A stretch of DNA of 64,000 nt, from the NCBI GenBank assembly GCA_913043205.1, contig CAJWLF010000001.1:128032-192031 (forward strand), written 5' to 3'. The translations under genes and the position numbers were made by a program. Position 1 is the stretch's first letter. Each line of letters begins with the position of its first letter. Positions 29,583 to 56,418 of the stretch are shown here, one piece after another. The stretch comes from an uncultured Chloroflexota bacterium. GTDB taxonomy: Bacteria > Chloroflexota > UBA11872 > VXNJ01. Below the pieces are notes generated by a model. That model was not told where the DNA came from. It saw nothing but the letters and a program-made list of their open reading frames with translations, and did not search any database.

Positions 29583-30986
29583 TCATGAATCGTCAGATCT
29601 GATGCCTGCTTCGGTCATCGGTGCTGGGTCGAGAGCCTCATTTAGTTCATCATCTTGGATGTCGGTTAATCGTCTAGCTACTTCAGGTACACTTTCACCT
29701 GTTTTCACCGCCTCCTTAGCAATTTCAGCTGCACGCGCATATCCGATTCGAGGGGCCAGAGCTGTTGCTAACATAGTATTCCTGTCGAGCCAGAATTTAA
29801 TCATGCGCTCATCTGCCTCTAGGCCACTTACGCAATGTTCTGCAAAGCTTCGGGTGCCATTCCCTAGTATTTCAATCGACTGACATAAATTGAAGCCAAT
29901 TATCGGCATCATAACGTTGAGTTGAAGCTGGCCTGCTTCTGCAGCGTGCGAAATGGTGACGTCATTCCCTGATATTTGAAGGCAAATCATGTTCATGCAT
30001 TCAGCTAAAACAGGGTTCACTTTTCCGGGCATTATTGATGAACCGGGTTGTATTGCGGGCAATAGAATTTCTGCGAAGCCTGTTCTTGGCCCTGATCCTA
30101 ATAGGCGAAAGTCGTTGGCTATTCGCATAAGGTCTGTCGATAACGTTCTGAGCGACCCTGAAAGGTTAGCGAATCGTGACATGCTTTGCATAGAATAAAA
30201 TAGATTTTCAGAGCGTTTCACCGGTAATGCTCCGGATTCGCGAATAACCTCGATTATACGAGTCTGATATTTGGGTTCTGCGTTCAATCCGGTTCCCACA
30301 GCTGTTCCTCCAACGCTGAGTTCGCGGATCGGCATCTCGGCAGCTTGGATGATAGCCTTGTCTCTCCTGATCGCTTCGGCATATGCACCAAATTCTTGTC
30401 CAAGTCGTAGAGGGGTGGCATCTTGAAGATGTGTTCTCCCGGTCTTAATTATGTGATCCCATGATTTAGACTTATCCTCAAGTTCTTTTGCTAGTGTGTC
30501 TAAACCGTCATACAGTGTGGGCAATAAGCGAAGTGCCCCCAAAGCGATCGCAGTAGGAATGACGTCATTGGTCGACTGAGACATGTTGACATGATCGTTG
30601 GGATGCACCGGAGTGTATTCCCCTCTTGTGCCTCCCAGCGATTCATTAGCCATATTTGCCAGCAATTCGTTTGCATTCATGTTGTGGGAAGTACCGGCCC
30701 CGGCTTGGAATATATCAACTACGAATTGGTCATGATGCATTCCAGACAGGATTTGATCGGCTGCCGAGATGATTGCATCAGCTACCCTTGGGTCTAGTCG
30801 CTGATGCTCTTTATGAGTTACGGCGGCTGCTCTCTTAATTAAGACGGTTCCCCAAACAAAAGCCGAGTGAGGGCGAATTCCACTAATCGGAAAATTATGG
30901 ATGGCTCTCTGCGTCTGTACCCCGTACAGTGCTTCAGAGGGTACTTGTAATTCTCCTAGAGGGTCTTTTTCTGTTCTATAGCTCAT
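29583..30986 (-). CDS. Aspartate ammonia-lyase / class II fumarate hydratase
   Basis: YGVQTQRA, HPNDHVNMSQSTND, GRTHLQDA, GSSIMPGKVNP. QAGAGTS and EAGQLQLNV are AspA-like, so the substrate is ambiguous. Confidence 0.9.
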   Translation of the reverse strand: MSYRTEKDPLGELQVPSEALYGVQTQRAIHNFPISGIRPHSAFVWGTVLIKRAAAVTHKEHQRLDPRVADAIISAADQILSGMHHDQFVVDIFQAGAGTSHNMNANELLANMANESLGGTRGEYTPVHPNDHVNMSQSTNDVIPTAIALGALRLLPTLYDGLDTLAKELEDKSKSWDHIIKTGRTHLQDATPLRLGQEFGAYAEAIRRDKAIIQAAEMPIRELSVGGTAVGTGLNAEPKYQTRIIEVIRESGALPVKRSENLFYSMQSMSRFANLSGSLRTLSTDLMRIANDFRLLGSGPRTGFAEILLPAIQPGSSIMPGKVNPVLAECMNMICLQISGNDVTISHAAEAGQLQLNVMMPIIGFNLCQSIEILGNGTRSFAEHCVSGLEADERMIKFWLDRNTMLATALAPRIGYARAAEIAKEAVKTGESVPEVARRLTDIQDDELNEALDPAPMTEAGIRSDDS

Positions 30987-37606: not shown

Positions 37607-39841
37607 GTGAAAGATTATGTCAGTCCCTTAGAATTAACACTGTACAATCAACGACTTTGGTATGGGCCGATATTGTCAAGTAGCGTAATAGATCCGGATT
37701 CACTCAACGCCCCACAATGGGAGGCTGTGAAACACACCAACGGCCCTTTGCTTATTCTGGCAGGGGCGGGTTCCGGCAAGACCAGGGTGATAACGTTTCG
37801 GGTGGCACAACTGATTCACCATCATTCGGTGAGTCCAGGCAACATACTGTCTGTCACGTTCACCAATAAAGCGGCTGATGAGATGAAGGCGAGAATTGCT
37901 GAGATTGTTGGTCTGAAAGCTTCCGGTTTGCAATTGGGCACGTTCCACGGATTTTGCGTGAATCTGTTGCGAAGATTTCGCTCTGAGGCCTACCTGCCGA
38001 ATGGCTTTACGATTTTTGATGGGGATGATCAACTGCAAGTAATCAAGTCATGCATGAAGGAATTGGGTGTCCCTAGGGACCAAGTGTCACCGGTAGCGGT
38101 TCGTAATGAGATTTCTCGCGCCAAAGACGAACTTAGGACTAGTCACCAATATGCTGAATTCTGTGAGGGGTTTTTTCAAGAGGTTACATCCAAAATTTAC
38201 TCTAGTTACCAGAATGTCCTTAGTAATGCCCATGGACTCGACTTTGGTGATTTGATTATGTCCTCCGTTCGGTTATTGAGAGAGTCTTCTCACGCCCTTG
38301 ATTTCTGTCATGAACGATACCGCTATATTCAAGTTGATGAGTACCAAGATACTAATCGTGCACAGTACGCCTTGATAAGAGAGTTGGCCTCTGCTCGGCG
38401 AAATTTAGCGGTGGTTGGTGATGATGATCAAAGCATTTATGGATGGAGGGGTGCAGACATTCGCAACCTACTTGATTTTGAAGCAGAATACCCGGACTCC
38501 CGAGTAATTAAGCTAGAACAGAACTATAGGTCTACGCAAATGATTCTAGATGCAGCCCACCACGTTGTTAGTCGATTACCTGAACGTAAAGAGAAGCATT
38601 TATGGACTGATAGGTCTGATGGATCACTCATCAAAGTCATTGAAACGTACGATGAGGAAGATGAGGCGATCAGAGTTCTAACTGAAATACAAAATTTGAT
38701 TGCCGCAGAAGGTTGTCTTCGTGGTGATTTCGCCATTATGTATCGAACGAACGCACAGTCTAGGCCGTTGGAGGAGTGCTTTGTCAAAGCAGGACTTCCG
38801 TATCAATTGGTCGGAGGAACTGAGTTTTACTCCCGTAGAGAAATTAAAGACCTTTTGGCATATTTGCGAGTGGTCAGTAATCCGCAAGATGATGTAAGTC
38901 TCGAGCGTGTTGTAAATGTGCCTAGTCGAGGTATAGGAGAAAAGACTCTCAATTGGTTAAAGGAGTGGGCAGCAAGCCGTGGTGTGTCGGCGAGTTCAGG
39001 GCTTAGGATGTTAGCTTCCGACAAATCGTCTGTGCCAATCGATGATGTGCCTTCACGTGCACTCAAAGTTTTGGGCCCCGTTGCGGACCTGCTGGTGGAA
39101 TTTGATGACTTGGCTCGCAGGTCTAGTCTTCCATATTTGATTGAACAAATATTTGAGAGAAGTGGTTATAAGAATATGTTGGAGTTAGATCGTGATGCAG
39201 GGGCAGATCGTATAGAGAATGTTATGGAGTTGATTGCTGCTACGGCTCGATATGCCGATGGTGACCCATTGGAATCTCTCATCAGATATTTACAAGAAGT
39301 AGCATTGGTCTCGGACGTTGACCGTATGCGTGTTGATGCAGATTCTATAACGCTAATAACGTTACATGCAGCAAAAGGCTTGGAATTTAAAAATGTGTTT
39401 CTTGTCGGGTTCGAAGAAGAGTATTGTCCTCATTTCCGGTCATTCCACGATCCGCTTCAAATGGAAGAGGAAAGACGGTTGGCCTATGTTGGGATTACTC
39501 GAGCGATTGACAGACTATATTTAACTTATGCTCGCTTTCGCGGTGGATGGGGTAGTAGAGCCCGTCTTCCATCGCGCTTTATACAGGACATCCCAGATGA
39601 TCTCCTAGAGACAATTGGCCGTACGGAACGTGTAAGTTCCTCCCCTAGTACTGCCAAAATCGATTTATCCACTGAGAGGTCTTATTCGGATGGGCAAAAG
39701 GTGTGTCACCCCGTATTCGGTAAAGGGATCGTGATATCTGGCAAAATCGGGCCGAGCGGGGATGAAGAAGTTCAAGTGGCTTTCGCTGATGGAGGTATAA
39801 AATTGTTGAGTGTTAGTTTCGCAAATCTTGAACGAATGTAG
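37607..39841 (+). CDS. pcrA: ATP-dependent DNA helicase PcrA/UvrD
   Basis: LAGAGSGKT, TFTNKAA, VDEYQDTN, GDDDQSIYGWRGA, LEQNYRS, TLHAAKGLEF, EERRLAYVGITRA. True start probably about 20 codons downstream. Confidence 0.96.
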   Translation: MKDYVSPLELTLYNQRLWYGPILSSSVIDPDSLNAPQWEAVKHTNGPLLILAGAGSGKTRVITFRVAQLIHHHSVSPGNILSVTFTNKAADEMKARIAEIVGLKASGLQLGTFHGFCVNLLRRFRSEAYLPNGFTIFDGDDQLQVIKSCMKELGVPRDQVSPVAVRNEISRAKDELRTSHQYAEFCEGFFQEVTSKIYSSYQNVLSNAHGLDFGDLIMSSVRLLRESSHALDFCHERYRYIQVDEYQDTNRAQYALIRELASARRNLAVVGDDDQSIYGWRGADIRNLLDFEAEYPDSRVIKLEQNYRSTQMILDAAHHVVSRLPERKEKHLWTDRSDGSLIKVIETYDEEDEAIRVLTEIQNLIAAEGCLRGDFAIMYRTNAQSRPLEECFVKAGLPYQLVGGTEFYSRREIKDLLAYLRVVSNPQDDVSLERVVNVPSRGIGEKTLNWLKEWAASRGVSASSGLRMLASDKSSVPIDDVPSRALKVLGPVADLLVEFDDLARRSSLPYLIEQIFERSGYKNMLELDRDAGADRIENVMELIAATARYADGDPLESLIRYLQEVALVSDVDRMRVDADSITLITLHAAKGLEFKNVFLVGFEEEYCPHFRSFHDPLQMEEERRLAYVGITRAIDRLYLTYARFRGGWGSRARLPSRFIQDIPDDLLETIGRTERVSSSPSTAKIDLSTERSYSDGQKVCHPVFGKGIVISGKIGPSGDEEVQVAFADGGIKLLSVSFANLERM

Positions 39842-39848
39842 TGGTGCA

Positions 39849-40508
39849 ATGGCTCGCAAAGTGTTTGTGGATTTTGATGGTACTATCGCTTCTCATGACG
39901 TCGGTAATCAGATATTGCAGGTTTTTGGCAACGAAGAGGTCATGAGAATCGATCAGTTGTGGATCAATGGAGACATATCTACACGTGAACGGGCTGAGGC
40001 TCAGTTTGCTCATATTGACGTTTCCGAATATGAGCTGAAGAGATTTGTGGACTCATTCCATGTCGAGCCTGATTTCATTGAATTTGTTGATTGGTGTCGT
40101 TCTAAGGATGTTGAATTAGAGATTCTCAGTGACGGGTTTGATTTTTACATTGATCGAATGCTGGCAGCTGTTGGGTTGACGGCATTGCCTCGACGGGCAA
40201 ATAGTCTGGCTTTTGAGGAAGACAAAATTATTTTGAGGTTTCCTTACGAAAATGATGGAAATCGCATGTTTGGAGTATGCAAGGATGTGTACCTACGGTC
40301 TGCAGCAAATTGTTATGAATCTATTGCTTTTATCGGAGACTCGAATTCAGACATTCCTGCCGCACCAATTGCCGATATTCTATTCGCACGCGAAGGCTTA
40401 ATTCTTGCTCGTTACTGCAAGCTTAATGAAATTCCAGTGTTCGAATTCTCTCGGTTTGTGGAGGTCAGTACTGTTTTACATGCCAAATGGTTTGACGAAG
40501 GGATCTGA
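39849..40508 (+). CDS. MtnX-like HAD-IB phosphatase
   Basis: DFDGT, LSDG, CK, IGDSNSD. Confidence 0.85.
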   Translation: MARKVFVDFDGTIASHDVGNQILQVFGNEEVMRIDQLWINGDISTRERAEAQFAHIDVSEYELKRFVDSFHVEPDFIEFVDWCRSKDVELEILSDGFDFYIDRMLAAVGLTALPRRANSLAFEEDKIILRFPYENDGNRMFGVCKDVYLRSAANCYESIAFIGDSNSDIPAAPIADILFAREGLILARYCKLNEIPVFEFSRFVEVSTVLHAKWFDEGI

Positions 40509-40522
40509 TGTAGGAAACAGGT

Positions 40523-42265
40523 ATGAAATTTTCTGAATTAGTTGAGGCCTTTGAGAGAATTGAAAATGTGAGTTCTAGAACTGAAATGACAGCTATCCTT
40601 GGCCAAGTGTTTCAACAGTGCTCCTCTTATGAAGCCCGGCTTATTGCTTACCTTATACAAGGTCGGGTCTCACCTGCCTTCGTGGCTCTTGAGTTCGGTG
40701 TTGGTGAGAAACTATTGCTTGAGGCTATTGCCCAGGCTTGCGACGTTGACAAATCCGTTGTTGAAAGCGCTGTGCATAATCATGGTGATTTTGGTTTGGC
40801 GGCTGAGGTACTCGTCGACAATGCCAGTGAGTGTTTGACAATAGCTCAGGTGTTTTCAGGACTTCTACAGGTGGCGCGGATATCTGGTGATGATTCCCAG
40901 CAGGCTAAAATTCAGTCCATATCAGAAATGATTAGTGCTATGAGCCCACGCGAGGTGCGCTACCTGGTTCGAATACCACTAGATCGGTTGCGTCTCGGTG
41001 TGAGAGACCCAACAGTTCTTGATGCCCTATCGGTGGGTCGTGTTGGAAATAAGTCCGACCGAAAGCAAATTGAAAGGGCTTATAACTTGGTCAGCGATTT
41101 GGGATTGGTTTCCGAACTATATACTAGAGATGGTTTAGAACCACTGTGCGAGATTAACGTTGAGGTGGGCAATCCCGTGCGTCCAGCTCAAGCGGCTAGA
41201 CTGTCTTCCGGTGATGAGATAGTTGCCAAAATCGGGGAGTGTGCAGTCGAACCAAAATTCGACGGATTCCGGCTTCAAGTACATCGCAATGGTCATCAAG
41301 TGTATATCTACTCAAGGAACCTTGAGGACATGACGGGAATGTTCCCTGAGATTGCCGAGGCGGCTAGGACGCGTCTCAGTTGTGACAATGTAATTTTTGA
41401 AGGTGAAGCGATGGCTTACGATCCCGATACTCTTGAGTTTCGTCCTTTTCAGGTTACTGTGTCGCGTCGTCGTAAACACGATATCGATCGATTGTCTACG
41501 GACAACCCTCTCAAGTTGATTTGCTTTGATGTGCTTTGTGTTAATGGTGAAGATGTTACCACTTATGGCTACCGTGAAAGGCGAGAAAAACTGTTGCAGA
41601 TCGTGCAACCTAACGAATCTATAGGCGTTGCTGAAAGTATTGTGACCGGCATCGGTTCCAAGATCGACTCATTTTTCGCCGAGGAAGTGGAATCTGGATT
41701 GGAGGGAGTGATTGCGAAAAAGTTGGATGCCCCTTATCAGGCGGGCAAACGCGGATTTAACTGGATCAAACTAAAGCGCAGTTATAGTGTCGAATTAAGC
41801 GACACAATTGACTGTACAGTAATAGGTTACTGGTATGGACGTGGAAAGCGGGCGCAATGGGGCATTGGCGCGATACTTGCTGCTGTATGGGATTCCAACG
41901 AAGGTATGCTTAAAACGATTGCTCGAGTTGGGACTGGGTTTTCTGATGAGGAATGGGTTGCTATAAGGCATCTGCTCGATAAGAATCGTTCGGAGACTTG
42001 TCCACCAGAAGTAGATTCTTCCATAATCCCCGATGTATGGGTGCATCCGATTCACGTTGTTGAGGTGCTAGCTGACGAGTTGACTAAGAGTCCCAATCAC
42101 ACGGCTGGCAAGGGAAATGATAACTCTGGGCATGCCCTAAGGTTTCCGCGAGTCCTCGGTATGCCTCGTATGGACAAATCCCCTCAAGACTCTACAACCG
42201 TCGATGAGATAGAGAAAATGTTTCAAGCTCAGAACACTGGTAGTGCTGCTGAGGCTCAAGCTTGA
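40523..42265 (+). CDS. lig: ATP-dependent DNA ligase (archaeal/LigB type with N-terminal DNA-binding domain)
   Basis: EPKFDGFR (KxDG), FEGE, FDVL, EGVIAK, WIKLK, RVGTG, LRFPR. Confidence 0.95.
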   Translation: MKFSELVEAFERIENVSSRTEMTAILGQVFQQCSSYEARLIAYLIQGRVSPAFVALEFGVGEKLLLEAIAQACDVDKSVVESAVHNHGDFGLAAEVLVDNASECLTIAQVFSGLLQVARISGDDSQQAKIQSISEMISAMSPREVRYLVRIPLDRLRLGVRDPTVLDALSVGRVGNKSDRKQIERAYNLVSDLGLVSELYTRDGLEPLCEINVEVGNPVRPAQAARLSSGDEIVAKIGECAVEPKFDGFRLQVHRNGHQVYIYSRNLEDMTGMFPEIAEAARTRLSCDNVIFEGEAMAYDPDTLEFRPFQVTVSRRRKHDIDRLSTDNPLKLICFDVLCVNGEDVTTYGYRERREKLLQIVQPNESIGVAESIVTGIGSKIDSFFAEEVESGLEGVIAKKLDAPYQAGKRGFNWIKLKRSYSVELSDTIDCTVIGYWYGRGKRAQWGIGAILAAVWDSNEGMLKTIARVGTGFSDEEWVAIRHLLDKNRSETCPPEVDSSIIPDVWVHPIHVVEVLADELTKSPNHTAGKGNDNSGHALRFPRVLGMPRMDKSPQDSTTVDEIEKMFQAQNTGSAAEAQA

Positions 42266-45080: not shown

Positions 45081-47378
45081 CTACTCGGACGCTCGAGATT
45101 GTCGGATAACGTTAATTGCTGAGCCAGCCCAGAACCATTCAATCTGATCTTTGTTTAGCGTATGGGACAAAGATATTAAATCAGTTGAGCCATTTGAGTG
45201 CCTGATTGAGGCTTGGAGTGATGTGTTTGGATTTATCTTACCTATGTCGCATATGGTTATGCGGTCATCTTTTCGTATCAAATTATAGTCATCGGAACTA
45301 TCAAAGGTGAGAGGCAAGATGCCCTGTTTTTTAAGATTTGATTCGGCAATCCTCGCAAAACTTCGAGCTATTATGGCGGCCGCTCCCAATAGCCTTGGCG
45401 ACATAGCGGCATGTTCCCTGCTGCTACCTTCACCATAGTTGTCATCACCTATTGCTACCCAGCTGCGAGACTTGTTTTTCCATGAACGTGCAATCTTAGG
45501 AATTGATATATCTTCTTCTCCAGTAATGGAGTTGAACCCATGTCCTGGAGAGGTTGCAAAACAATTATTCGCCCCAAGAAACATGTTGTCACTGATGTTG
45601 TTTAGATGCCCTCGGTATCGAAGCCACGGCCCGGCTGCTGATATGTGGTCTGTGGTACAAGGCCCGTCCGCTTTTAGGAGTACTGGCATATTCAGGTATT
45701 CATCTGGATGACGCTCTTCAAACGGTTTAAGACGTTCAAGCCTTTTGCTGTGGCTAGCGATTTTGACCATAACTTTTTCATCTGAATTCGGTGAAATATG
45801 ACCGTGGCCCCTACCAATATAGCCATTTTCTGGGATATCTTTGGCTTGGGATGGTGGCTTTAAGGTGAATGGTCCATTCGTTCCTTCTAACGCGTCTATG
45901 ACAGGATTGAAAGACAATTTGCCGCCTAGCGCAAACGCCACAGCTATCTCAGGGCTTACAATAAAAGCTAGGGTGTCAGGATTACCATCGTTTCTACGTG
46001 GGAAATTGCGATTGTAAGACGTGACGATTGAGTTTTGTGCGCCAGTTCTACTATCCGGTTGGTTGCTGGGTGCGAAGTCGTCTCTTTGCCACTGTCCGAT
46101 ACAGGGTCCACATGCATTTGCCAGCACCGTCCCCCCCACTTTCTCCAGGGTGCCCAATTGTCCATCTCTTTCGATAGTTGCACGAATCATTTCCGATCCT
46201 GGGGTAACTAAAAATGGGACACGACTGGTGGTTTCATTGCTGATAGCCTGCTCGGCTACAGCCGCGGCACGGGTAATGTCCTGATAGCTGGAATTTGTGC
46301 AGCTGCCTATTAGGCTAGCCGACAATTGATCCGGGTAACCGTGTTCAACAACGTCTTTTTGGAATTCGGACAATGGCCTGGCTAAATCTGGCCTATGAGG
46401 CCCTACCACATGCGGTTCTAGAGATGACAAGTCGATTTCGACAATTTGATCAAAAAATTCTTCAGGACTGTCGAGAACTTCTTGGTCGGCGGTCAATAAA
46501 TCGAGAGATGAGTCAGCTAGGTTTGCAATATCGGATCGATTTGTTGACCTAAGGTATCGGCCCATAGCTTTGTCGTAAGGGAATATGGATGTGGTGGCAC
46601 CAAGTTCCGCCCCCATGTTCGTTATCGTCCCTTTGCCAGTGGCAGCAATCGAAGTTGTCCCTGGTCCAAAATATTCGACTATGTGGTTTGTTCCTCCTTT
46701 GGCTGACAGTATCCCGGCTACCTTTAGAATTACGTCTTTTGGTGACGCCCACCCATCTAGATTACCAGTTAAACGAATGCCGATTAGTTTTGGTGCTAAT
46801 ACTTCCCACGGAAATCCCACCATCACGTCGGCAGCGTCTGCACCACCAACTCCTATAGCAAGCATGCCTAATCCACCAGCGTTTGGAGTATGGCTGTCGG
46901 TTCCTATAAGAAGCCCTCCTGGAAAGGCATAGTTTTCAAACAGCACCTGATGGATAATTCCAGATCCAGGTGACCAAAACCCCATACCATAACGCTGCGA
47001 AACCGATCTTAAAAACTTGTATACCTCGTCATTCTCTTGCTTGGCAGCCTTTAGATCACTGTCTGCTCCAATATGTGCACGAATTAAATGGTCACAATGA
47101 ATGGTTGTTGGAACCGATACCTCGTCCTTATCAGCCAGCATGAATTGCAGAGCTGCCATTTGTGCTGTGGCATCTTGCATAGCCACCCGGTCTGGTGTTA
47201 GTTGTAGATAGCTAACTCCCGGCACTAAGTCTTGTTTGGTATCGACAAGATGGCCGTACAAAAGTTTTTCTGACAGTGTTAAAGGCCGAGATACAGTGCT
47301 TCGCATCCCATCTAACCTCGACCGCATATTGGCGTAAACTTGTGCCACAAAATCCCTTGTCGAATCGATGCTGCTCAT
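45081..47378 (-). CDS. acn: Aconitate hydratase (mitochondrial-like type)
   Basis: DRVAMQDATAQMA, HCDH, DSHT, GSCTNSS, ACGPCIG, YNRNF, TTDHIS, GEGSSRE. Confidence 0.96.
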   Translation of the reverse strand: MSSIDSTRDFVAQVYANMRSRLDGMRSTVSRPLTLSEKLLYGHLVDTKQDLVPGVSYLQLTPDRVAMQDATAQMAALQFMLADKDEVSVPTTIHCDHLIRAHIGADSDLKAAKQENDEVYKFLRSVSQRYGMGFWSPGSGIIHQVLFENYAFPGGLLIGTDSHTPNAGGLGMLAIGVGGADAADVMVGFPWEVLAPKLIGIRLTGNLDGWASPKDVILKVAGILSAKGGTNHIVEYFGPGTTSIAATGKGTITNMGAELGATTSIFPYDKAMGRYLRSTNRSDIANLADSSLDLLTADQEVLDSPEEFFDQIVEIDLSSLEPHVVGPHRPDLARPLSEFQKDVVEHGYPDQLSASLIGSCTNSSYQDITRAAAVAEQAISNETTSRVPFLVTPGSEMIRATIERDGQLGTLEKVGGTVLANACGPCIGQWQRDDFAPSNQPDSRTGAQNSIVTSYNRNFPRRNDGNPDTLAFIVSPEIAVAFALGGKLSFNPVIDALEGTNGPFTLKPPSQAKDIPENGYIGRGHGHISPNSDEKVMVKIASHSKRLERLKPFEERHPDEYLNMPVLLKADGPCTTDHISAAGPWLRYRGHLNNISDNMFLGANNCFATSPGHGFNSITGEEDISIPKIARSWKNKSRSWVAIGDDNYGEGSSREHAAMSPRLLGAAAIIARSFARIAESNLKKQGILPLTFDSSDDYNLIRKDDRITICDIGKINPNTSLQASIRHSNGSTDLISLSHTLNKDQIEWFWAGSAINVIRQSRASE

Positions 47379-47572: not shown

Positions 47573-48703
47573 TTGAAACTTCATGAGCATCAAGCTCGCA
47601 AGCTGTTGTCTGAATTCTCCATACCGGTGCCTCGTGGGATAGTGGCTTCCTCAGTAGATGAGGCGATTTCGGCTTTTCACGAACTAGGAGGCCCGGTAGT
47701 GGTGAAGGCACAAGTCTTGTCTGGTGGGAGGGGAAAGGCTGGAGGGGTGGTATTAGCCAATAACGAGGCTGCCGTAGAATCCGCTGCAAAAAACATACTG
47801 CGTCTTGAGATAGGTGGATATTCTGTGAAGCGTCTTTTAATCACTGATGCTTGCGAAATTTCAAAGGAAATATATTTATCCGCTTTGATCGACAGAAACG
47901 CAGGGGCGATTGCTGTGATGGCTAGCTCCAAAGGCGGTATGGATATTGAAGAAGTGGCTCTGCAGTCGCCCGAATTGATAATGCGTAGACATGTTGATTA
48001 TGCCACGGGTCTCCCTCAATTTATGGCTCGAGAGTTGGGCTTTGAACTCGGTTTGGATTGGGATCAAGTGAAAGAGTTTCAGAGCATAGCGTCTAACCTA
48101 GTAGAGCTGCTGAAACAAGTCGATGCTTCACTTGTTGAGATTAACCCTTTGATTGTAGATGGTGAGGGCCATTGTCGGGCGATAGATGCAAAGATTGATT
48201 TAGATGACAATGCCATGGGCCGTCATCCTGAGCTGGAAAATCTTCGTAACCCGGAGGAGTATACCCGCGAGGAGATTGAGGCGCGAAACGCCGGCATTAG
48301 CTATATAAAATTGGATGGGAACATAGGGTGTATGGTCAATGGAGCAGGTTTGGCTATGGCTCTTCTTGATGTAATCAAAGGTGAGGGCGGAGAGCCAGCC
48401 AATTTTCTCGATGTCGGGGGTGGTGCTGATTCTGTACAGGTCCGAACAGCCATGAACATAATCCTGTCTGATCCAACTGTACGGGTTATCTTGATCAATA
48501 TTTTTGGAGGTATCACTAGATGTGACGAGGTTGCGAACGGTGTAATTGAAGCACTTGGGTCGATTTCCAAAGATGTTGATCTCGTAGTTCGCTTGGTTGG
48601 TACTAATGAGGATGAAGGGTTGTCGCTTTTGAAAACCGCTGGCATTTCAGCTCATTCGTCCATGGTTGAGGCGGTCAAACAGGCTGTTGAGCTGGCGTCA
48701 TGA
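47573..48703 (+). CDS. sucC: Succinyl-CoA synthetase beta subunit
   Basis: LHEHQA, KAQVLSGGRGKAGG, EINP, NGAGLAM, PANFLDVGGG, NIFGGITRCD. Confidence 0.97.
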   Translation: MKLHEHQARKLLSEFSIPVPRGIVASSVDEAISAFHELGGPVVVKAQVLSGGRGKAGGVVLANNEAAVESAAKNILRLEIGGYSVKRLLITDACEISKEIYLSALIDRNAGAIAVMASSKGGMDIEEVALQSPELIMRRHVDYATGLPQFMARELGFELGLDWDQVKEFQSIASNLVELLKQVDASLVEINPLIVDGEGHCRAIDAKIDLDDNAMGRHPELENLRNPEEYTREEIEARNAGISYIKLDGNIGCMVNGAGLAMALLDVIKGEGGEPANFLDVGGGADSVQVRTAMNIILSDPTVRVILINIFGGITRCDEVANGVIEALGSISKDVDLVVRLVGTNEDEGLSLLKTAGISAHSSMVEAVKQAVELAS

Positions 48704-49566
48704 GCATTCTGATCAATGAAAACACTAAAGTTATGGTTCAGGGAATTACCGGTAATCAAGGTTCATTTCACACCAACCTAATGCAGCAATATGGCACGAA
48801 CGTCATCAGTGGTGTCGTGCCCGGGAAAGGTGGCGAATCAGTCTTCGGCGTACCAGTTTTTGACACCGTCATTCAGGCTGTTGAGTTCGATAGACCAGAT
48901 TGTGCAGTGGTATTTGTTCCGGCCGCTGTTGCGGCTGATGCAATACTTGAGGAGGTGGCTTGCGGCATTCCATTAATTATTTGCATTACTGAGGGTATTC
49001 CGGTGCTTGATGTAACAAGAGTTATGCAGGCAGTAAATGCTTCCGGTGTCCGGCTGATTGGACCCAATTGCCCCGGTCTTATAAGCCCTGGTCGAAGCAA
49101 GGTTGGGATTATGCCGAGTCATATTCATATGCCGGGACCTGTAGGCGTCGTCAGCCGTAGTGGAACTCTCACTTATGAAGTCGTACAGGCTTTAACTGAT
49201 GCCGGCATCGGTCAAACTACATGTGTTGGGATTGGTGGGGACCCCATAATTGGCACATCTTTTGTTGAGGCCGTAAAAATGTTTCAAGAAGACGATGAAA
49301 CACGAGGTATTGTGGTCATAGGGGAGATTGGAGGGGAGGGTGAAGAACAATGTGCAGAGTATATAGGCAAATACGTAGACAAGCCGGTCGTAGGATTCAT
49401 TTCCGGTAGGTCAGCGCCCGCTGAAAAACGTATGGGGCACGCCGGTGCGATTGTCTCAGGTAGTACAGGGTCAGCTGATGCAAAAATTTCGGCCTTCGAA
49501 GAAGTCGGTGTTTCAGTCGCAAGGATTCCAACTGACATTGCCGCGTTAATTTCTGATTTATTGTGA
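48700..49566 (+). CDS. sucD: Succinyl-CoA synthetase alpha subunit
   Basis: QGITG, GPNCPG, SRSGTLTYE, GIGGD, GEIGG, MGHAGA. Confidence 0.97.
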   Translation: MSILINENTKVMVQGITGNQGSFHTNLMQQYGTNVISGVVPGKGGESVFGVPVFDTVIQAVEFDRPDCAVVFVPAAVAADAILEEVACGIPLIICITEGIPVLDVTRVMQAVNASGVRLIGPNCPGLISPGRSKVGIMPSHIHMPGPVGVVSRSGTLTYEVVQALTDAGIGQTTCVGIGGDPIIGTSFVEAVKMFQEDDETRGIVVIGEIGGEGEEQCAEYIGKYVDKPVVGFISGRSAPAEKRMGHAGAIVSGSTGSADAKISAFEEVGVSVARIPTDIAALISDLL

Positions 49567-49689
49567 TGTTTTGTTATGCATGATCGTGTGCGCAGACGGA
49601 TAACTGTGTAGGATATACGTTCAGGTGTTAATTAGAGTTATTACTTTGACGGGTTGTACAAGCAATCTGGGAAAGGCAAAAGCATAACT

Positions 49690-51333
49690 GTGATCCAGCA
49701 CGATGTAATCGTGGTTGGTGGTGGTGTTGCAGGCCTTAGTGCGGCTATAGCTGCAGCTGACAGAGGGTCTGTGGCTCTTATTTCAAAGAGCCACCCGCTG
49801 CGCTCAATGTCGGCAAGTATTCGTGAAGGTATTAATTGTTGTGATGATGATTTGTTCCCTTCATTGGTGGCGGATACGATCCACGCCGGCGAATATCTTA
49901 ATGATGTTAATGCTACAGAGGCATTGATCAAAAATTCCTCACAAATGGTCTCAAAGTTGGAGGAGTATGGGGTTGCCTTTACCCGAGATTCTGCAGGGTT
50001 GGCTGCAACGGCTAAATTACAAGGGGCTTCTCGTTCATATACTCGGTACTGTTCCGACCATACAGGAAGGGCGGTAGTTAATGCTTTGTGGAGCCAAGTG
50101 GTTAAGGCTGGCGTATCTGTATACGACGAATGGATGGCTACTAAATTACTTGTAGACGAGTCGACAGTGTGCGGTGTTGTTGCACTGGATATACGGTCTG
50201 GTCGTGTACATTCTTTTTCTGGTCGCTCTGTAGTCATTTGCTCGGGGGGGTATGGGGGTATATTTGCTGATAGTGCTGCGGGGTCCTATGTTTGCGGTGA
50301 TGGATTGGCGATGGCCTATCGAATTGGCGCCACCCTTAAGAATATGGAATTTGTGGATTTTCACCCTGCTGGACTTAGAACGGTTGATGGGATGCCATCA
50401 GATGGGGCAGCTATCGGTGATATGGCCATAGCCCTAGGGGCGCGATTCGTGAATTCTGATGGAGATGAGATAGACGTTGGGTTGAATAATGGGGTGCTTC
50501 CACCGGACCACATAATGTCAAACGCTCTCAGTAATGTGGCTGGTGATGTGGCATTAGATTTCACCACAATCGATAATGAGTTGATGGCTGAGATTATTCC
50601 TTCTTGTTTACCTCTTTTGCGTTCTATCACCACTACTTCATCTGATGGTATTAGAGTTTCAGTTAAGCCGGTTGTTAGGCGGGTAATCGGCGGTATAAAC
50701 ATAAATAGTGTCGGTGCGACTAATGTGTCAGGGCTATACGCTGCTGGTGAGGCTGCCTGCTCAGGGGTTCATGGAGCGGGGTTGCTAGCAGGGAATTCAA
50801 TGCTCGATGATTTTGTATCCGGATGGAATGCTGGCGTGGAAGGCAGTCGGGTTGAAGGTGGCTTTAGGACCATCAATGAAGGTGACGCGCATGATGAGCA
50901 GAATCGAATAGAGAGCATATTACGTAGAGATGAGGGGAACTCGGCGGCGGCAATTTCAAGTTCTCTAAGGCGCGCTATGTCCGATGGTTTTGGAGTCCTT
51001 AGATCACCGGATGGTATGGAAATTGCTTCTCAAGTGCTATTTGATTGTCGCGAATCCCTCAATGGTGTCGCCATTTACGATGGGCGAAGCCGCTATAATC
51101 AAGAATTAGTTAAAGTGCTTGAATTGCAGAATATGATAGAGGTTGCAGGTGCGCTGGTTACGTCTGCAATGGCACGAAAGGAATCACGGGGTAGTCATAA
51201 ACGTACTGATTTTATTGAGGTTGATGACGAGAGATATCAAAAACATTCTGAAATCACATTTCACCCCAATGGTTCTGAAGTATCTTTTGTGTCTTTTCCG
51301 GCAATTCGCTCCTCCCGACAGGAGGCTCAGTGA
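49690..51333 (+). CDS. SdhA/FrdA-like flavoprotein with a degenerate active site
   Basis: Collinear with SdhA ([36 protein letters not shown]) but most catalytic residues are substituted. GTG 49690 aligns with the FrdA start. Confidence 0.88.
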   Translation: MIQHDVIVVGGGVAGLSAAIAAADRGSVALISKSHPLRSMSASIREGINCCDDDLFPSLVADTIHAGEYLNDVNATEALIKNSSQMVSKLEEYGVAFTRDSAGLAATAKLQGASRSYTRYCSDHTGRAVVNALWSQVVKAGVSVYDEWMATKLLVDESTVCGVVALDIRSGRVHSFSGRSVVICSGGYGGIFADSAAGSYVCGDGLAMAYRIGATLKNMEFVDFHPAGLRTVDGMPSDGAAIGDMAIALGARFVNSDGDEIDVGLNNGVLPPDHIMSNALSNVAGDVALDFTTIDNELMAEIIPSCLPLLRSITTTSSDGIRVSVKPVVRRVIGGININSVGATNVSGLYAAGEAACSGVHGAGLLAGNSMLDDFVSGWNAGVEGSRVEGGFRTINEGDAHDEQNRIESILRRDEGNSAAAISSSLRRAMSDGFGVLRSPDGMEIASQVLFDCRESLNGVAIYDGRSRYNQELVKVLELQNMIEVAGALVTSAMARKESRGSHKRTDFIEVDDERYQKHSEITFHPNGSEVSFVSFPAIRSSRQEAQ

Positions 51334-52043
51334 TGGATAATGTTGAATTAGTTGTAACTAGATACGATCCAGAAATAGACGATTTTCATCGAAGTCAAAC
51401 ATTCTCTGTTAGGGCGGTGCCAGGCATGACTGTTCTTGATGCACTAGTTCAGGTCCGTGACGAACAGGATGGATCACTTCGTTTCAGAGAGTCGGAACCT
51501 GGTGGTTGGAGCGGTTCATGCGCGGTCACGGTTAATGACGTGCCGTGTCTGGCTTCCCGGACGCTTCTGGCTAGAGTTATATTAAATAATTCAGCTGTGA
51601 TAGGTCCTTTGAAGAATTTTCCGGTAATATGTGATCTGGTTGTTGACAACCCCATATATCTGGCAAAAATTGAAGCTTTGGAGCCTTGGGTAGATAACGC
51701 AAAAGAGCAACCTGCATCAATGACCCGTGAAGAGTATTTTAGATTGCGACGAACTGATGGGTGTGCCCTTTGTGGTATTTGTGATGCTAATTCGGATGAG
51801 TACCTGACTGATCCAATGTTTATTGGAGCAGCGTCATTACTGTGGACCTATCGTTTGACATCCGATTCGCGTGACTCGTTTGACCGAGAGCGCATGGAGG
51901 CTGTGCTTGGTAGCGGAGGGTTATGGGCCTTTTCTGGTGATACTTCCAGTGAGGATTTATGTCCTTATGCTATCGACCCAGTAAATCAAATTATGAGATT
52001 ACGAAATGCAGCCTCACAGAATGGATATGTTCCTACTGAATAG
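51330..52043 (+). CDS. SdhB/FrdB-like Fe-S protein missing most cluster cysteines
   Basis: RYDP, TVLDAL, DGSL.FR, PLKNFPVICDLVVD, CALCGIC, FIGAA, DSRD, LCP; translationally coupled to the upstream gene. Confidence 0.88.
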   Translation: MMDNVELVVTRYDPEIDDFHRSQTFSVRAVPGMTVLDALVQVRDEQDGSLRFRESEPGGWSGSCAVTVNDVPCLASRTLLARVILNNSAVIGPLKNFPVICDLVVDNPIYLAKIEALEPWVDNAKEQPASMTREEYFRLRRTDGCALCGICDANSDEYLTDPMFIGAASLLWTYRLTSDSRDSFDRERMEAVLGSGGLWAFSGDTSSEDLCPYAIDPVNQIMRLRNAASQNGYVPTE

Positions 52044-52091: not shown

Positions 52092-53018
52092 ATGCGGCCT
52101 AAAGTGACTGTTGTCGGAGCTGGTGCGACAGGCGGATCTACCGCGAGAAGGGTAGCCGCTCGCGGATATGCTGACGTGGTGCTACTGGACATAATGGCAG
52201 ACTTTGCTGCCGGCAAAGCCCTGGATTTAAATCAGGCAGGCTCTTTGGTCGGGTATCCGCCGAATATAGTTGGAACCGGGTCTTATGAAGATACTCGCGG
52301 ATCTTCTGTTTGCGTAATAACCTCTGGGTTTCCTCGGAAGCCTGGAATGTCTCGAGATGATCTATTGCTTGGCAACAAGGAAATTATTGAAATCGTTGTC
52401 GAAAAGCTTTTAGACGAGTCTCCTGACACCATTTTGGTAATCCTAACGAATCCTATGGACGCGATGGCTCAATTAGCTCTCCACGTGTCTGGATTACCAC
52501 GCCAAAAAGTTATAGGACAAGGTGGGATACTTGATACTGCTAGATATCGGACATTCATTGCATGGGAGCTCGGTGTAGCGGCTGATGATGTATCTGGTTT
52601 CGTTCTTGGTGGTCATGGAGATACGATGGTACCAGTACCCAGTTATACATCGGTAGCAGGCATTCCTGTAACGGAACTTATTGATGCTGATCGATTGGAA
52701 GAAATTGTTCAGCGTGCACGTGATGGTGGGGCCGAAGTTGGAGGTCTGATGAAAGTCGCTAGTGCATTTGAGGCGCCTGGAGAGGCCTGTGCAATGATGG
52801 TTGATTCCATAATGCTTGATCAGAAACGAATATTTCCCTGCGCTGTACAGCTGGAAGGTGAGTTTGATATTGATGGGACCTTCGTCGGTGTTCCAGTTAA
52901 GTTGGGTAGCGGTGGAGTGGAACAGATAATGCCGCTGAAATTGTCGTCTACTGAAATATCAGATCTAAAAAAGTCAGCTGATGCAGTAGTTGAACTGGTT
53001 AAAATTATGGGTATCTAG
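52092..53018 (+). CDS. mdh: Malate dehydrogenase (LDH-like)
   Basis: GAGATG, GKALD, PRKPGMSRDDL, NPMD, LDTAR, LGGHGD; AAGGAGG SD. Confidence 0.96.
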   Translation: MRPKVTVVGAGATGGSTARRVAARGYADVVLLDIMADFAAGKALDLNQAGSLVGYPPNIVGTGSYEDTRGSSVCVITSGFPRKPGMSRDDLLLGNKEIIEIVVEKLLDESPDTILVILTNPMDAMAQLALHVSGLPRQKVIGQGGILDTARYRTFIAWELGVAADDVSGFVLGGHGDTMVPVPSYTSVAGIPVTELIDADRLEEIVQRARDGGAEVGGLMKVASAFEAPGEACAMMVDSIMLDQKRIFPCAVQLEGEFDIDGTFVGVPVKLGSGGVEQIMPLKLSSTEISDLKKSADAVVELVKIMGI

Positions 53019-53100: not shown

Positions 53101-53457
53101 TTAGAGCCCTGCAAGTAATAATGCAGCTAGCCCGGAAGCCCCAAGGGCGCTTAGATAACATAGTGTTGCCGCTATTGGATCTGGTATTGGAATACGAGTG
53201 TCATGTATCGTATGGCGTATCCGATGAGCGGCGTGCATTAACGATGCTCCTATAACGGCTAATACGACGATGCGTACGATCCAGTTGCTAAGCAGTGAGT
53301 ATATTCGATCATACGAAAAGGCCACTTGGGCCTCTTCTATTCCAAATCCACCTAAAATAGTAGATGCAATTAATGAAGGTATTAGCATTGCTGACACGAC
53401 TCCACCACCACTAAATATTAGCCAGAACAATGCTTCGTTCGATCCACGAGGCTTCAT
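53101..53457 (-). CDS. frdD: Fumarate reductase subunit D (membrane anchor)
   Basis: SNEALFWLIFSGGG and HAAHRIRHTIHD match enterobacterial-type FrdD; start trimmed to ATG 53457. Confidence 0.9.
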   Translation of the reverse strand: MKPRGSNEALFWLIFSGGGVVSAMLIPSLIASTILGGFGIEEAQVAFSYDRIYSLLSNWIVRIVVLAVIGASLMHAAHRIRHTIHDTRIPIPDPIAATLCYLSALGASGLAALLLAGL

Positions 53458-53915
53458 GAAAATATCATCCATAGAACAATAGAGCTTACTCCCAACCACA
53501 CTATGTAAAGGGGAGTGATTAAAAATAGTGGCGATATCGGAGATTCTCCTTTAAGTATCCGTACCGCTTTCGGCGTCAGATTAAACCAAGTTACCGTATG
53601 AAATAACGCAAAGAGCAAGGTAAATACTTGAATTACCGTTAATGGTGGCGACCATAGCAACTCCATATAGTCGTTGTATGCTTCTGCTCCGATATACAAA
53701 GCCGCTATCAACCCTATAAACAGTATGAGGTATAAAGCGATAAAGACTGAGGTTAGCTCTCTAATAAATACGAAGAAATAAGACGATCCCCGTAGCCACC
53801 ACGTTGCCCCTAAATCTGGACGTGGGCGAGTATCACGCTGTCTGTATCTCGTGTGATTAAGCCACCAATTTGAGTGCAAGTTATGGGAAGGACGGCGTTT
53901 TTCGGGGTCAGTCAT
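53454..53915 (-). CDS. frdC: Fumarate reductase subunit C (membrane anchor)
   Basis: TWWL...Y..FIRELTS and HTVTWFNLTPKA; start trimmed to ATG 53915. Confidence 0.9.
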   Translation of the reverse strand: MTDPEKRRPSHNLHSNWWLNHTRYRQRDTRPRPDLGATWWLRGSSYFFVFIRELTSVFIALYLILFIGLIAALYIGAEAYNDYMELLWSPPLTVIQVFTLLFALFHTVTWFNLTPKAVRILKGESPISPLFLITPLYIVWLGVSSIVLWMIFS

Positions 53916-54661
53916 TTGTTCCCTTTTGGCATAATCAATGATTTGGCATAGGCCAGGGCACTTTCGAGCTTGGCTTGTTGTATCGCGGCTGCCGGATCTA
54001 CTCCTTTTGGGCATACATTTGAACACTCTCCCACGAAGGTACAGTCCCAAACACCCTCATTGGCCATAAGAACATCTAGTCTTTGCTCTTTTCCTGAGTC
54101 GCGAGAGTCCAAGTTATATCGCTGGGCTAGCGCTATGGCTGCAGGTCCAACGAATTCAGGTTCGTTGCTGGCCACGGGGCACGCAGAGTAACACAGGGTG
54201 CAGTTAATACACATGCTGTATTGCTTGTATTTTGCCAGTTGAGCAGGTGTTTGTTTGTATTCTCGGTTCGCGGGAGGGACCGAGTCTCCTTCAATTAACC
54301 AGGGCTTCACGGAGTCTAGTTTGTGGATAAAGTCATCCATATCCACTATAAGATCTCGTTCAACTCTGAAATTGGCCAATGGTTCAACAACGATAGGGTC
54401 TGGGTAGTATTCTGAGAGAAACGCGGAACATGTGAGCTTGGGTTTGCCGTTAATCATCATCCCGCAACTGCCGCACACTCCCATTCGGCACGACCATCGA
54501 TAAGCTAGCGATCCGTCAACGTAATCTTTTATGTAATTAAGCGCATCAAGAACAACCCAATCTTCGTTGTACGGAACCATGTATTCATCATAGCCGTCCG
54601 TGGTCTGCCCTTCGGTGTATCTGGATATTTTTAGGGGTATTCTGTCAGTATCCACGGTCAT
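53912..54661 (-). CDS. frdB: Fumarate reductase/succinate dehydrogenase Fe-S subunit
   Basis: All clusters intact: [37 protein letters not shown]. Confidence 0.96.
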
Positions 54662-56418
54662 TTTCCTCCTCCGTATATACGTTTAGCTGGCGGGAGGTTA
54701 GTGATGACAACATCCTTGTGCTCGATTCGCGGTGCGTCATCGGTGTTGTACGCAAGAGAATGTTTTAGGAACTCGTCATCATCTCGCTCTGGGAAATCAG
54801 TTCGCTGGTGAGATCCACGAGATTCTTTTCGGCGGAGCGCAGAGAACGTGACTGTCTCTGCAATATCAAGCATGAAGTCTAGCTCTATTGCAGAAGTTAA
54901 TTCTGTATTGTAGGACAGGCTAGTGTCATCTAGTTTAAGGTTTTTGGATCGTTTGCGTAGCTCTGTGATCGTTGTACAGGCCTTTTGCATTCCTTCCGCA
55001 TTTCGGTATATTCCTGCTCCTTCTTCAAGCGCGGATGTCATTATATTTCTGAGATCCGCTATTTTTTCATCCCCGGCTCGATTTCCGAGCAGCTCCGAAA
55101 TCCTATTAATCTCGTCTTGAGTCTGGGAGAGCAGGTCGTTTTCCCCAGATATGCCGTGCTGTTGGGCGAATATGGCTGCATTTCTGCCGGCTTGCGCCCC
55201 AAAAACTAGCAGTTCAGTTAGCGAATTGGAGCCTAGTCTATTTGCACCATTAATGCTTACGCATGCGCATTCTCCGGCTGCGTATAGTCCCGGTAGGGTA
55301 GTCGCGGCTTCAATATCCGTATCTATGCCGCCCATCATGTAATGCACCACAGGACGCACGGGGATAGGTTCGTGTACAGGGTCTACCCCACCATAGTTGT
55401 TAGACAACTCCCTTACGAAAGGTATCTTTTTCTCAATATATGATTCACCCAAATGTCTTACGTCTAAATGAACGTAAGTACCATGAGGGCCTTCAAAGAC
55501 ATTACCTTTGGTTTGTTCGTGTATGAACGCCTGCGACAAACGATCTCGGGGACCTAGTTCCATTGTTCGGTTTTTCGGATGATCATGATGATCTATAGGG
55601 AGAGGCTTGCCTAGATCATAGTCGCTGAGGTAACGATGTCCTTTGTTATTGACAAGGATCCCTCCCTCTCCTCGGGCTGCTTCGGTAATTAGAATACCGG
55701 TTCCTGGTAGTCCTGTTGGGTGGTATTGAACAAATTCCATGTCTTTCAATGCAACCCCTGCCCTGTAGGCTAGAGCCATTCCATCTCCGGTCTTGATTGC
55801 AGCATTCGTAGTAAATGGGAACACTCTTCCGCCTCCGCCTGTGCACATAATTACTGCCTTCGCAAGTATCGGTACGATCCGTCCTGTGCGCAACTCCATT
55901 GCAGCTACCCCTTGGCACCTACCATCGTGGGTTAACAGCCTAAGCGCCATCCATTCGTCATACCGTTGCAAGCTCCTATATTTGAGAGTTGTTTGGAACA
56001 GTGAGTGAAGTACATGGAACCCAGTTTTGTCCGCTGCAAACCATGTACGTTCAATCTGCATTCCGCCAAATGGGCGAACTGCAACGCTGCCGTCTGATTC
56101 GCGGCTCCAGGGACACCCCCAGTGTTCGAGTTGAATCAACTCCGACGGTGCTGTTCTCACGAAAAATTCAACAGCGTCCTGGTCCGCTAGCCAGTCTGAT
56201 CCGCTCACCGTGTCATAGATGTGATCCTCAAAACTGTCATTGGGCTTGATGACGGCTGCCATGCCACCTTCTGCAGCCACCGTATGGCTGCGCATTGGGT
56301 AGACCTTGGAAACTACAGCCACGTCCAAATCTGGGTTCTCTTGAGACACCGCAATAGCAGCCCTAAGCCCTGCCCCTCCACCTCCAATAATTAGAATGTC
56401 GTGTTTGATAGAGCGCAT
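54658..56418 (-). CDS. frdA: Fumarate reductase/succinate dehydrogenase flavoprotein
   Basis: [43 protein letters not shown] all intact. Confidence 0.97.

Follow-up and report, generated by a model that had tools for sequence, protein, structure and literature searches.

A complex II-like gene pair lacking the residues for covalent flavin, dicarboxylate and two of three clusters among tricarboxylic acid cycle genes of a marine Chloroflexota bacterium

What keeps a succinate dehydrogenase-like gene pair in a small genome when the residues that define the enzyme have gone? The question is raised by a 64,000-nucleotide (nt) stretch of DNA from an uncultured Chloroflexota bacterium (contig CAJWLF010000001.1 of GenBank assembly GCA_913043205.1; hereafter the window, meaning the whole stretch analyzed), in which sdhA', encoding an SdhA/FrdA-like flavoprotein, and sdhB', encoding an SdhB/FrdB-like partner, stand between the genes for succinate-CoA ligase and malate dehydrogenase. 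The best explanation of the results described below is that the pair is a paralog of the soluble head of complex II situated within a sucC-sucD-sdhA'-sdhB'-mdh operon. As to its function, we favor a soluble heterodimer that has no catalytic activity and plays a structural or regulatory part in the tricarboxylic acid (TCA) module, a reading to which we assign a probability of roughly 45%.

Flavin ligand and substrate site of SdhA'

The GTG start assigned to sdhA' is consistent with all 13 orthologs compared; an alternative in-frame TTG is located at position 49654 (frame 49654–51333). The encoded protein contains the Pfam domains FAD_binding_2 (E 2.7e-53, 182 bits) and Succ_DH_flav_C (E 2.1e-26, 93 bits), and by BLAST it is 31% identical (E 1e-79) to the FrdA that is encoded in the same window (54658–56418, minus strand). 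An AlphaFold2 model built from a 110-row alignment was of high quality, with a predicted local distance difference test score (pLDDT) of 94.8, a predicted template modeling score (pTM) of 0.95, and low confidence in two loops only. The best PDB matches to this model in Foldseek were complex II flavoproteins, including E. coli quinol:fumarate reductase (TM-score on the query, TMq, of 0.92). The whole four-domain flavoprotein fold is present in SdhA', as are the motifs of the flavin adenine dinucleotide (FAD) fold.

Within this intact framework, the replacements that the initial annotation had listed against the window FrdA were all recovered. RSHT>RSMS removes the covalent-FAD His and can be read directly at the codon for M40, whereas LITE>AIGD (G243 and D244), VHYMMGG>VRRVIGG (R330), and GANRLG>GAGLLA (L365) were seen in alignments. 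GPRD>LPPD, which had been taken as loss of the proton-donor Arg, is also found, and only the exact equivalent of R287 depends on the alignment (a gap in BLAST and P272 in MAFFT). SdhA' residues 253–310 are devoid of both Arg and Lys, so the proton-donor Arg is missing whichever way the sequences are aligned. The GxGxxG, GDG, FHP (H225, equivalent to H232), AAGE, and ESRGSH motifs are retained, in agreement with the same annotation. Identical substitutions occur in the homolog P0004 (76% identity), and they are thus more than chance.

The affected positions are those on which catalysis depends. In E. coli FrdA, fumarate is aligned by residues H232, H355, and R390, a twist is imposed on it by T244, and R287 supplies the proton; H44 serves as the histidyl ligand of FAD, and the H44S variant is used as a non-flavinylated control (PMC5773532). 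Among H44, H232, T244, R287, H355, and R390, SdhA' retains H232 only, and when E245 is counted its pattern at the seven sites is M-H-G-D-x-R-L. The genome's own NadB-like protein, encoded on contig 2, reads N-H-S-E-R-H-R at these sites, which bears out the earlier statement that NadB keeps the Arg/His set. The best sequence-based inference is that SdhA' may bind FAD non-covalently and cannot interconvert succinate and fumarate; judged by these residues, it cannot be a succinate dehydrogenase, a fumarate reductase, or an aspartate oxidase.

The loss of canonical residues in SdhA' is concentrated in the substrate-capping domain and leaves the helical domain untouched. SdhA' retains 53 of the 80 columns that are conserved at 90% or more in 46 canonical sequences, with 10/10 kept in the helical domain, 39/54 in the FAD domain, and 3/15 in the capping domain.

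The curated NCBIfam models for SdhA, FrdA, NadB, and TfrA match SdhA', but all fall below their cut-offs. The best is TIGR01812 (358.7 bits versus a cut-off of 567.3); among the others are TIGR01176 (302.9 versus 932.7), TIGR01816 (299 versus 727), and the NadB model TIGR00551 (268.9 versus 452.75), and the model for soluble fumarate reductases of the flavocytochrome c3 and Osm1 type, TIGR01813, gave 90.6 versus 285.45. No curated family model accepts the protein and no characterized family was found for it; SdhA' therefore does not classify as SdhA, FrdA, or NadB, nor as a soluble fumarate reductase.

The SdhB' partner and the predicted heterodimer

The start of sdhB' overlaps the stop of sdhA' by 4 nt, an arrangement found in 13 of the 13 genomes examined, and the two genes are translationally coupled. 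SdhB' contains the SdhB-type Fer2_3 domain as its sole Pfam domain and is 28% identical to the window FrdB. Residues C145, C148, C151, and C211-P212 are invariant in all 33 aligned sequences (SdhB' and 32 relatives), and these four Cys align with the [4Fe-4S] ligands of canonical subunits. With each Cys position presumed to serve the same cluster as in E. coli FrdB, the alignment leaves SdhB' with one of four [2Fe-2S] Cys and none of the three [3Fe-4S] Cys. Loss of [2Fe-2S] Cys extends to 9/9 sequences of the stripped type, with three of the four missing in this genus and all four in the related genus that we label g4. The former [2Fe-2S] loop of SdhB' reads R51-F-R-E54-S-E56-P-G-G-W-S61-G; R51, E54, E56, P57, G58, and S61 are invariant in each of the nine stripped-type proteins, and the loop is not random. 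No membrane-anchor gene accompanies the pair, which is directly flanked by sucD and mdh; the nearby frdC and frdD are part of the complete frdABCD.

When SdhA' and SdhB' were modeled together with FAD and a [4Fe-4S] cluster, the interface score (ipSAE) was 0.93, compared to 0.00 for the best control; 58 of 80 solved complexes attained this mark, as did 2 of 110 mismatched pairs. The runs agreed in at least 96% of contacts, and the partner pLDDT was at least 87. Because complex II structures have already been solved, this pass may reflect likeness to them. The results support an SdhA'-SdhB' heterodimer, the binding itself being a prediction. The predicted interface includes the clade-specific SdhA' invariants R45, R127, and N131 as well as the rebuilt loop of SdhB' (residues 54–63), with E54, E56, P57, G58, and S61 within it. 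The location of gained invariants at the modeled interface fits selection on the dimer, not on a substrate site, and the model suggests that the lost [2Fe-2S] cluster has been replaced by protein contacts. The co-occurrence of R45 and the acidic loop reflects a single evolutionary event.

The pair was compared with characterized systems. Its likeness to E. coli-type FrdAB/SdhAB (PDB 1KF6, 6AWF, and 1NEK) comprises the same four-domain fold of SdhA' (TMq 0.91–0.92 to 1kf6_A and 6awf_A), the best sequence matches (E 1e-59 to 1e-61), a Fer2_3 partner, adjacent coupled genes, and a complex II-type predicted heterodimer. The pair differs from those enzymes in that SdhA' lacks the histidyl ligand and has T244, E245, R287, H355, and R390 replaced, SdhB' has ligands for one cluster rather than three, and anchor subunits are absent. 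NadB (PDB 1CHU and 1KNP; E 8e-40) is likewise a soluble SdhA homolog of similar length without the covalent His, but it retains H232, E245, R287, H355, and R390, and to our knowledge it has no Fe-S partner. From the soluble fumarate reductases SdhA' is set apart by loss of the Arg/His set, by the C-terminal Succ_DH_flav_C domain, and by the SdhB-like partner. An AprA-like assignment is disfavored by the weaker match (PDB 8a8o_A, E 5.6e-19, versus 1e-59 to 1e-61 for FrdA/SdhA) and by the nature of the partner, since AprB is of the ferredoxin type whereas SdhB' is a Fer2_3 protein. Substitution mutants of H44 in E. coli FrdA reportedly have no histidyl ligand and bind FAD only non-covalently; they keep the dicarboxylate site and three clusters, whereas SdhA'B' has lost the site and two clusters. 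In the available portion of a 2023 review of non-canonical complex II, six classes of membrane anchor are distinguished and the soluble homologs are given as flavocytochrome c, Osm1, and NadB (PMC10238741). A cluster-depleted or catalytically stripped SdhAB pair was not found in those parts of the literature that were searched.

Relatives, selection, and operon setting

Among 98 genomes of the class, clade-type SdhB' (39–52% identity) is confined to the window's own family, where it is present in this genus (g1), in 6/7 genomes of g4, in 5/5 of g2, and in the single g3 genome, and absent from all five of g5. The slot sucCD-sdhA'B'-mdh is the same in g1, g2, g3, and g4, all within one family of marine Chloroflexota. 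The pair from the window belongs to this clade by its slot, the 4-nt overlap, the loss of H44 and R390, the loss of [3Fe-4S] ligands, and monophyly. Among 5.8 billion protein clusters, the closest SdhA' homolog is P0004 (76%) and the next is P0005 (38%); there are about ten SdhB'-type clusters, none of which is named in any source. A profile search of 1.84 billion representatives gave 860, 776, and 668 bits for three clade representatives, followed by a drop to 524. One metagenome contig, L104, carries P0004 in the same ten-gene order as the window and is the sole true relative among 152 pattern matches (L105, at 28%, is unrelated and was not used). A scan of genome collections, from which 80 loci were kept of at least 600 matches, returned only SdhA/FrdA types of 28–36% identity from many phyla; it employed a mixed alignment that yielded generic patterns and is uninformative on the clade. 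Searching the ESM Atlas produced generic SdhA, NadB, and FAD-binding clusters only and no functional lead.

The clade alignment (14 SdhA' sequences) reveals a graded series, in which g2 and g3 are partly stripped and this genus and g4 fully stripped. In the proteins of g2, g3, and P0005, H44 is changed to G or A, H232 to N, and R390 to S or P, and the [3Fe-4S] residues C158 and C210 are lost, with C204 kept in 6/7; T244, E245, R287, H355, and the [2Fe-2S] and [4Fe-4S] Cys are retained. The losses go further in this genus, in g4, and in the singleton P0230, where R287 and the T244-E245 loop are gone too, and this genus and g4 have additionally lost [2Fe-2S] ligands. Compared with SdhA'B', the partly stripped pairs (P0196 and P0005) thus share the slot, the clade, and the loss of H44, R390, and [3Fe-4S] ligands, and they differ by the kept T244, E245, R287, and H355, by four [2Fe-2S] Cys, and by H232>N; judging from these residues, the g2/g3 proteins may be working enzymes. 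The number of canonical columns retained, out of 80, is 70 in g2/g3, 53 in SdhA', and 45 in g4. The fully stripped SdhA' proteins also possess invariants of their own, namely R45 (8/8; Q or E in canonical sequences), G243 (8/8), D244 (7/8), and L365 (8/8). A FastTree phylogeny of 162 sequences, rooted at the midpoint and with a topology that carries no support test, places P0230 as sister to this genus plus g4 and that group as sister to g2/g3, with the stripped forms on long branches.

The clade profile also retrieved SdhA-like proteins from other sources, rare and mostly singletons (P0207, P0218, P0219, P0227, P0251, P0200, P0223, P0243, and P0250); a fast alignment indicates that, of the seven residues for catalysis or FAD attachment, several are missing in them. 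Degenerate SdhA paralogs may have arisen repeatedly.

Both sdhA' and sdhB' are working genes rather than relics. In the comparison of this genome with L104, Nei-Gojobori ratios of nonsynonymous to synonymous substitution (dN/dS) were 0.137 for sdhA' (dS 1.04) and 0.060 for sdhB', alongside 0.121 for sucC, 0.047 for mdh, and 0.062 for frdA. Pairs within g4 gave 0.19–0.30 for sdhA' and 0.10–0.37 for sdhB'; the frames were taken from stop to stop and so include a few upstream codons, and in the deepest pairs dS approaches saturation. All domains of sdhA' are constrained within genera (omega 0.11–0.22). Since both genes are under purifying selection, they are not pseudogenes. One metatranscriptome run provided short contigs with 0–4 differences that covered sdhA' (three pieces), sdhB', the sdhB'-mdh junction, mdh, and frdA; such libraries can contain DNA, and the stretches without a contig (sucC, sucD, and the 5' third of sdhA') are uninformative. 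These contigs are a weak hint that sdhA'B'-mdh is expressed.

Positions of the genes and residues discussed are compiled in Table 1. The local order is aconitase on the minus strand, sucC-sucD-sdhA'-sdhB'-mdh on the plus strand, and frdDCBA on the minus strand, and the position of the aconitate hydratase gene is conserved in the g4 loci and in L104. A weak consensus scan detected a promoter-like site upstream of sucC and no terminator-like site from sucC to the end of mdh.

Table 1. Genes, codons, and rebuilt loop at the sdhA'-sdhB' locus (positions within the window)
Feature	Position	Strand	Description
Aconitate hydratase	45081–47378	-	Divergent, upstream of sucC; TIGR01340, 985.5 bits (cut-off 825)
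sucC	47573–48703	+	Succinate-CoA ligase beta; first gene of apparent operon; NF001913, 469 bits (cut-off 370)
sucD	48700–49566	+	Succinate-CoA ligase alpha; NF004230, 414 bits (cut-off 336)
sdhA'	49690–51333	+	SdhA/FrdA-like flavoprotein of 547 residues without covalent-FAD His and dicarboxylate site
M40 codon	49807–49809	+	Equivalent of E. coli FrdA H44, the covalent-FAD His
R45 codon	49822–49824	+	Gained clade-invariant Arg; position of FrdA E49 / SdhA Q50; predicted interface
G243 and D244 codons	50416–50421	+	Replace active-site loop residues T244 and E245
R330 codon	50677–50679	+	Position of H355
L365 codon	50782–50784	+	Position of the substrate and flavinylation residue R390
sdhB'	51330–52043	+	SdhB/FrdB-like partner of 237 residues retaining [4Fe-4S] Cys only
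Rebuilt former [2Fe-2S] loop of SdhB'	51489–51521	+	E54-S-E-P-G-G-W-S-G-S-C64; 3/4 Cys ligands replaced
mdh	52092–53018	+	Malate dehydrogenase; last gene of apparent operon; TIGR01763, 382.5 bits (cut-off 351.85)
frdABCD	53101–56418	-	Complete quinol:fumarate reductase-type complex II; NF006686, NF009051, FrdC and FrdD matches

The assembly measures 1.87 Mb and is 93.6% complete, and DNA of the window was found in marine metagenome runs. A relative of the Mdh at 68% identity is assigned to Chloroflexota at NCBI. Only three members of the flavoprotein superfamily are present: sdhA', frdA, and the nadB-like gene. The window FrdA passes NF006686 (912.6 bits versus a cut-off of 854) and retains all seven catalytic residues (HHTERHR), the frd locus passes NF009051 (342.8 versus 333), and FrdB has all of its cluster Cys; frdABCD is the genome's real complex II enzyme. 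Neither FrdABCD activity nor NadB activity needs the sdhA'B' pair because the genome has both proteins with intact sites.

A complex II stands beside mdh in this genus, in g4, and in g5, although its type differs. It is an E. coli-like frdABCD in this genus and in g5 (L091 and L092), whereas in g4 (L096–L100) it has a longer flavoprotein (a frame of ~620–710 residues, 35% identical to the window FrdA) and a different FrdB. Within the window's frd genes, the longest frame of frdC (53454–54050, minus strand; 198 residues) overlaps frdB by ~140 nt and has a Pfam match only from residue 80 onward; frdC probably starts downstream of the beginning of this frame. A 34-nt piece of frdA (55712–55745) had a contig depth of 22 to 121 in four runs compared to ~5 elsewhere, and is presumably a stretch conserved across the frdA/sdhA genes of many organisms.

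The sole candidate fumarase is an AspA/FumC-family protein encoded at 29583–30986 on the minus strand. It passes the aspartate ammonia-lyase subfamily model NF008909 (599 bits versus 510) and fails the class II fumarase equivalog (497 versus 665), and the assembly, at 93.6% completeness, yielded no fumarase of class I. The notion that the pair substitutes for a missing fumarase was dropped in view of this AspA/FumC-family protein. Elsewhere in the window, genes for a UvrD-type helicase, a HAD phosphatase, and a three-domain ATP-dependent DNA ligase (580 residues) lie in a row (37607–42265, plus strand). The GC skew of the window is about +0.2 over plus-strand genes and near 0 over minus-strand genes, and the cumulative curve climbs along its whole length. 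Such a pattern is expected on a leading strand when the biases of replication and of coding strand are additive.

Candidate functions of SdhA'B'

The substitutions reported by the initial annotation stand; its account was incomplete rather than wrong, for it did not include the Fe-S partner, the operon, the purifying selection, or the graded series. With these added, we favor a soluble SdhA'-SdhB' heterodimer that may hold non-covalent FAD and one [4Fe-4S] cluster. The binding of FAD is suggested by the Rossmann and other FAD-domain motifs kept in this genus, and the suggestion is weakened for g4, whose SdhA' has lost several canonical FAD-domain residues. Useful electron transfer between a flavin and a cluster is limited by the distance between them. 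Without the [2Fe-2S] cluster in the middle of the electron wire, the gap between the flavin and the [4Fe-4S] cluster should be too wide for such transfer. Given this interruption, the pair would no longer move electrons from a dicarboxylate to quinone. Such a pseudoenzyme module would act by protein-protein contacts with the co-expressed TCA enzymes, with the cofactors serving as structural elements or with the exposed cluster possibly serving as a sensor.

Several observations weigh against the non-catalytic heterodimer. A structural or regulatory role is reached by exclusion rather than from a partner or target of the dimer. The gained invariant sites are not significantly enriched at the predicted interface, either in SdhA' (4/22, p = 0.34) or in SdhB' (13/34, p = 0.06). 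A remodeled catalytic pocket would account equally well for the invariance of R45, G243, D244 (7/8), and L365 across sequences that are ~32% identical, and it would look much like what is seen in the capping domain, where omega is 0.22 between this genome and L104 and 0.11–0.16 for close g4 pairs. The kept [4Fe-4S] ligands and FAD motifs could equally point to redox chemistry with an external donor or acceptor. Moreover, in g5 the pair is lacking altogether and sucD is followed directly by mdh and frdABCD on the same strand (L091 and L092), so the pair is dispensable in some relatives.

The main rival to the non-catalytic heterodimer is a new flavoenzyme activity, which we consider possible but less probable. 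According to this explanation, the protein binds FAD non-covalently, has a remodeled pocket (R45, G243-D244, and L365) for a substrate other than a C4-dicarboxylate, and hands electrons either directly to O2 or some soluble carrier or, through the single [4Fe-4S] cluster, to a ferredoxin-like partner. Invariant new residues at former active-site positions across ~32% identity are what it would predict, as are purifying selection on every domain, including the cap, and retention of the FAD-fold motifs and the [4Fe-4S] ligands; furthermore, the g2/g3 proteins, which keep T244, E245, R287, H355, [2Fe-2S], and [4Fe-4S], look like working enzymes with an altered site. However, the capping-domain sequence of this genus is only 28% identical to that of g4, where deletions span the R287 region, and the positions of the His ligand, H232, and R287 vary among the stripped members. 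The g4 proteins have also lost K38 (to R), D130 (to W), and D212 of the GDG motif in the FAD domain, R45 maps to the predicted interface between the subunits and not clearly to a pocket, and no co-conserved gene points to a substrate.

A regulatory role exerted on complex II itself, in which SdhA'B' would sit on FrdCD in place of FrdAB as a decoy and modulate the activity or assembly of the complex, is in our judgment improbable. The frdABCD genes do lie 1 kb downstream on the opposite strand in this genome and in L104, complex II adjoins the operon in g4 too, and the pair has no anchor genes of its own. However, the [3Fe-4S] region, which in complex II faces the membrane anchor, has been rewritten in SdhB', and the frd genes are ~100 kb from the pair in g2 and g3. 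In g4 the neighboring complex II belongs to another type, which makes a single docking surface conserved across the genera unlikely. We give even less credence to a functionless second head that is decaying into pseudogenes: the progressive loss of cofactor ligands from g2/g3 to g1/g4, the long branches of the stripped forms, and the complete absence of the pair from g5 would fit such decay, but the frames are open, free of stops, and of constant length in 13 genomes from four genera, dN/dS is 0.06–0.30 with dS of 0.5–1.7, a genome of only 1.87 Mb still retains the pair, and new invariant residues have appeared. Least probable of all is that the pair still works as a succinate dehydrogenase or fumarate reductase by means of an unconventional active site. 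The slot between sucCD and mdh is where a succinate dehydrogenase belongs, and the fold and H232 are kept; against this, T244, R287, H355, and R390 are lost, residues 253–310 are without a basic residue, the electron wire is interrupted, and a complete FrdABCD is encoded next door.

A more speculative history, which we advance tentatively and as a whole, is that an electron-transfer head was turned stepwise into a cofactor-bearing signaling or scaffolding module, or else into a catalyst of an entirely new kind of flavin chemistry. The first step would have removed R390, the [3Fe-4S] cluster, and the covalent bond to flavin (g2 and g3); later, a conserved acidic loop would have replaced the [2Fe-2S] cluster and paired with the new flavoprotein Arg (this genus, g4, and P0230). 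The resulting soluble FAD/[4Fe-4S] heterodimer may sense redox state, iron, or oxygen by way of its exposed cluster, and it may tune SucCD, Mdh, or complex II by direct binding.

Few respiratory enzymes have been studied as thoroughly as complex II, and its head is commonly regarded as a fixed unit. In the present case, a paralog of that head has lost the substrate site, the covalent attachment of flavin, and two clusters out of three, yet purifying selection maintains it within the core TCA operon of a marine bacterium with a streamlined genome. Automatic annotation will label the pair succinate dehydrogenase and thereby give a wrong picture of the TCA and respiratory capacity of these bacteria, which are abundant and uncultured. 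With an intermediate stage preserved in related genera, the family offers a series for how a multi-cofactor redox enzyme is dismantled and re-used, and this series also bears on the non-respiratory roles that are open to complex II subunits.

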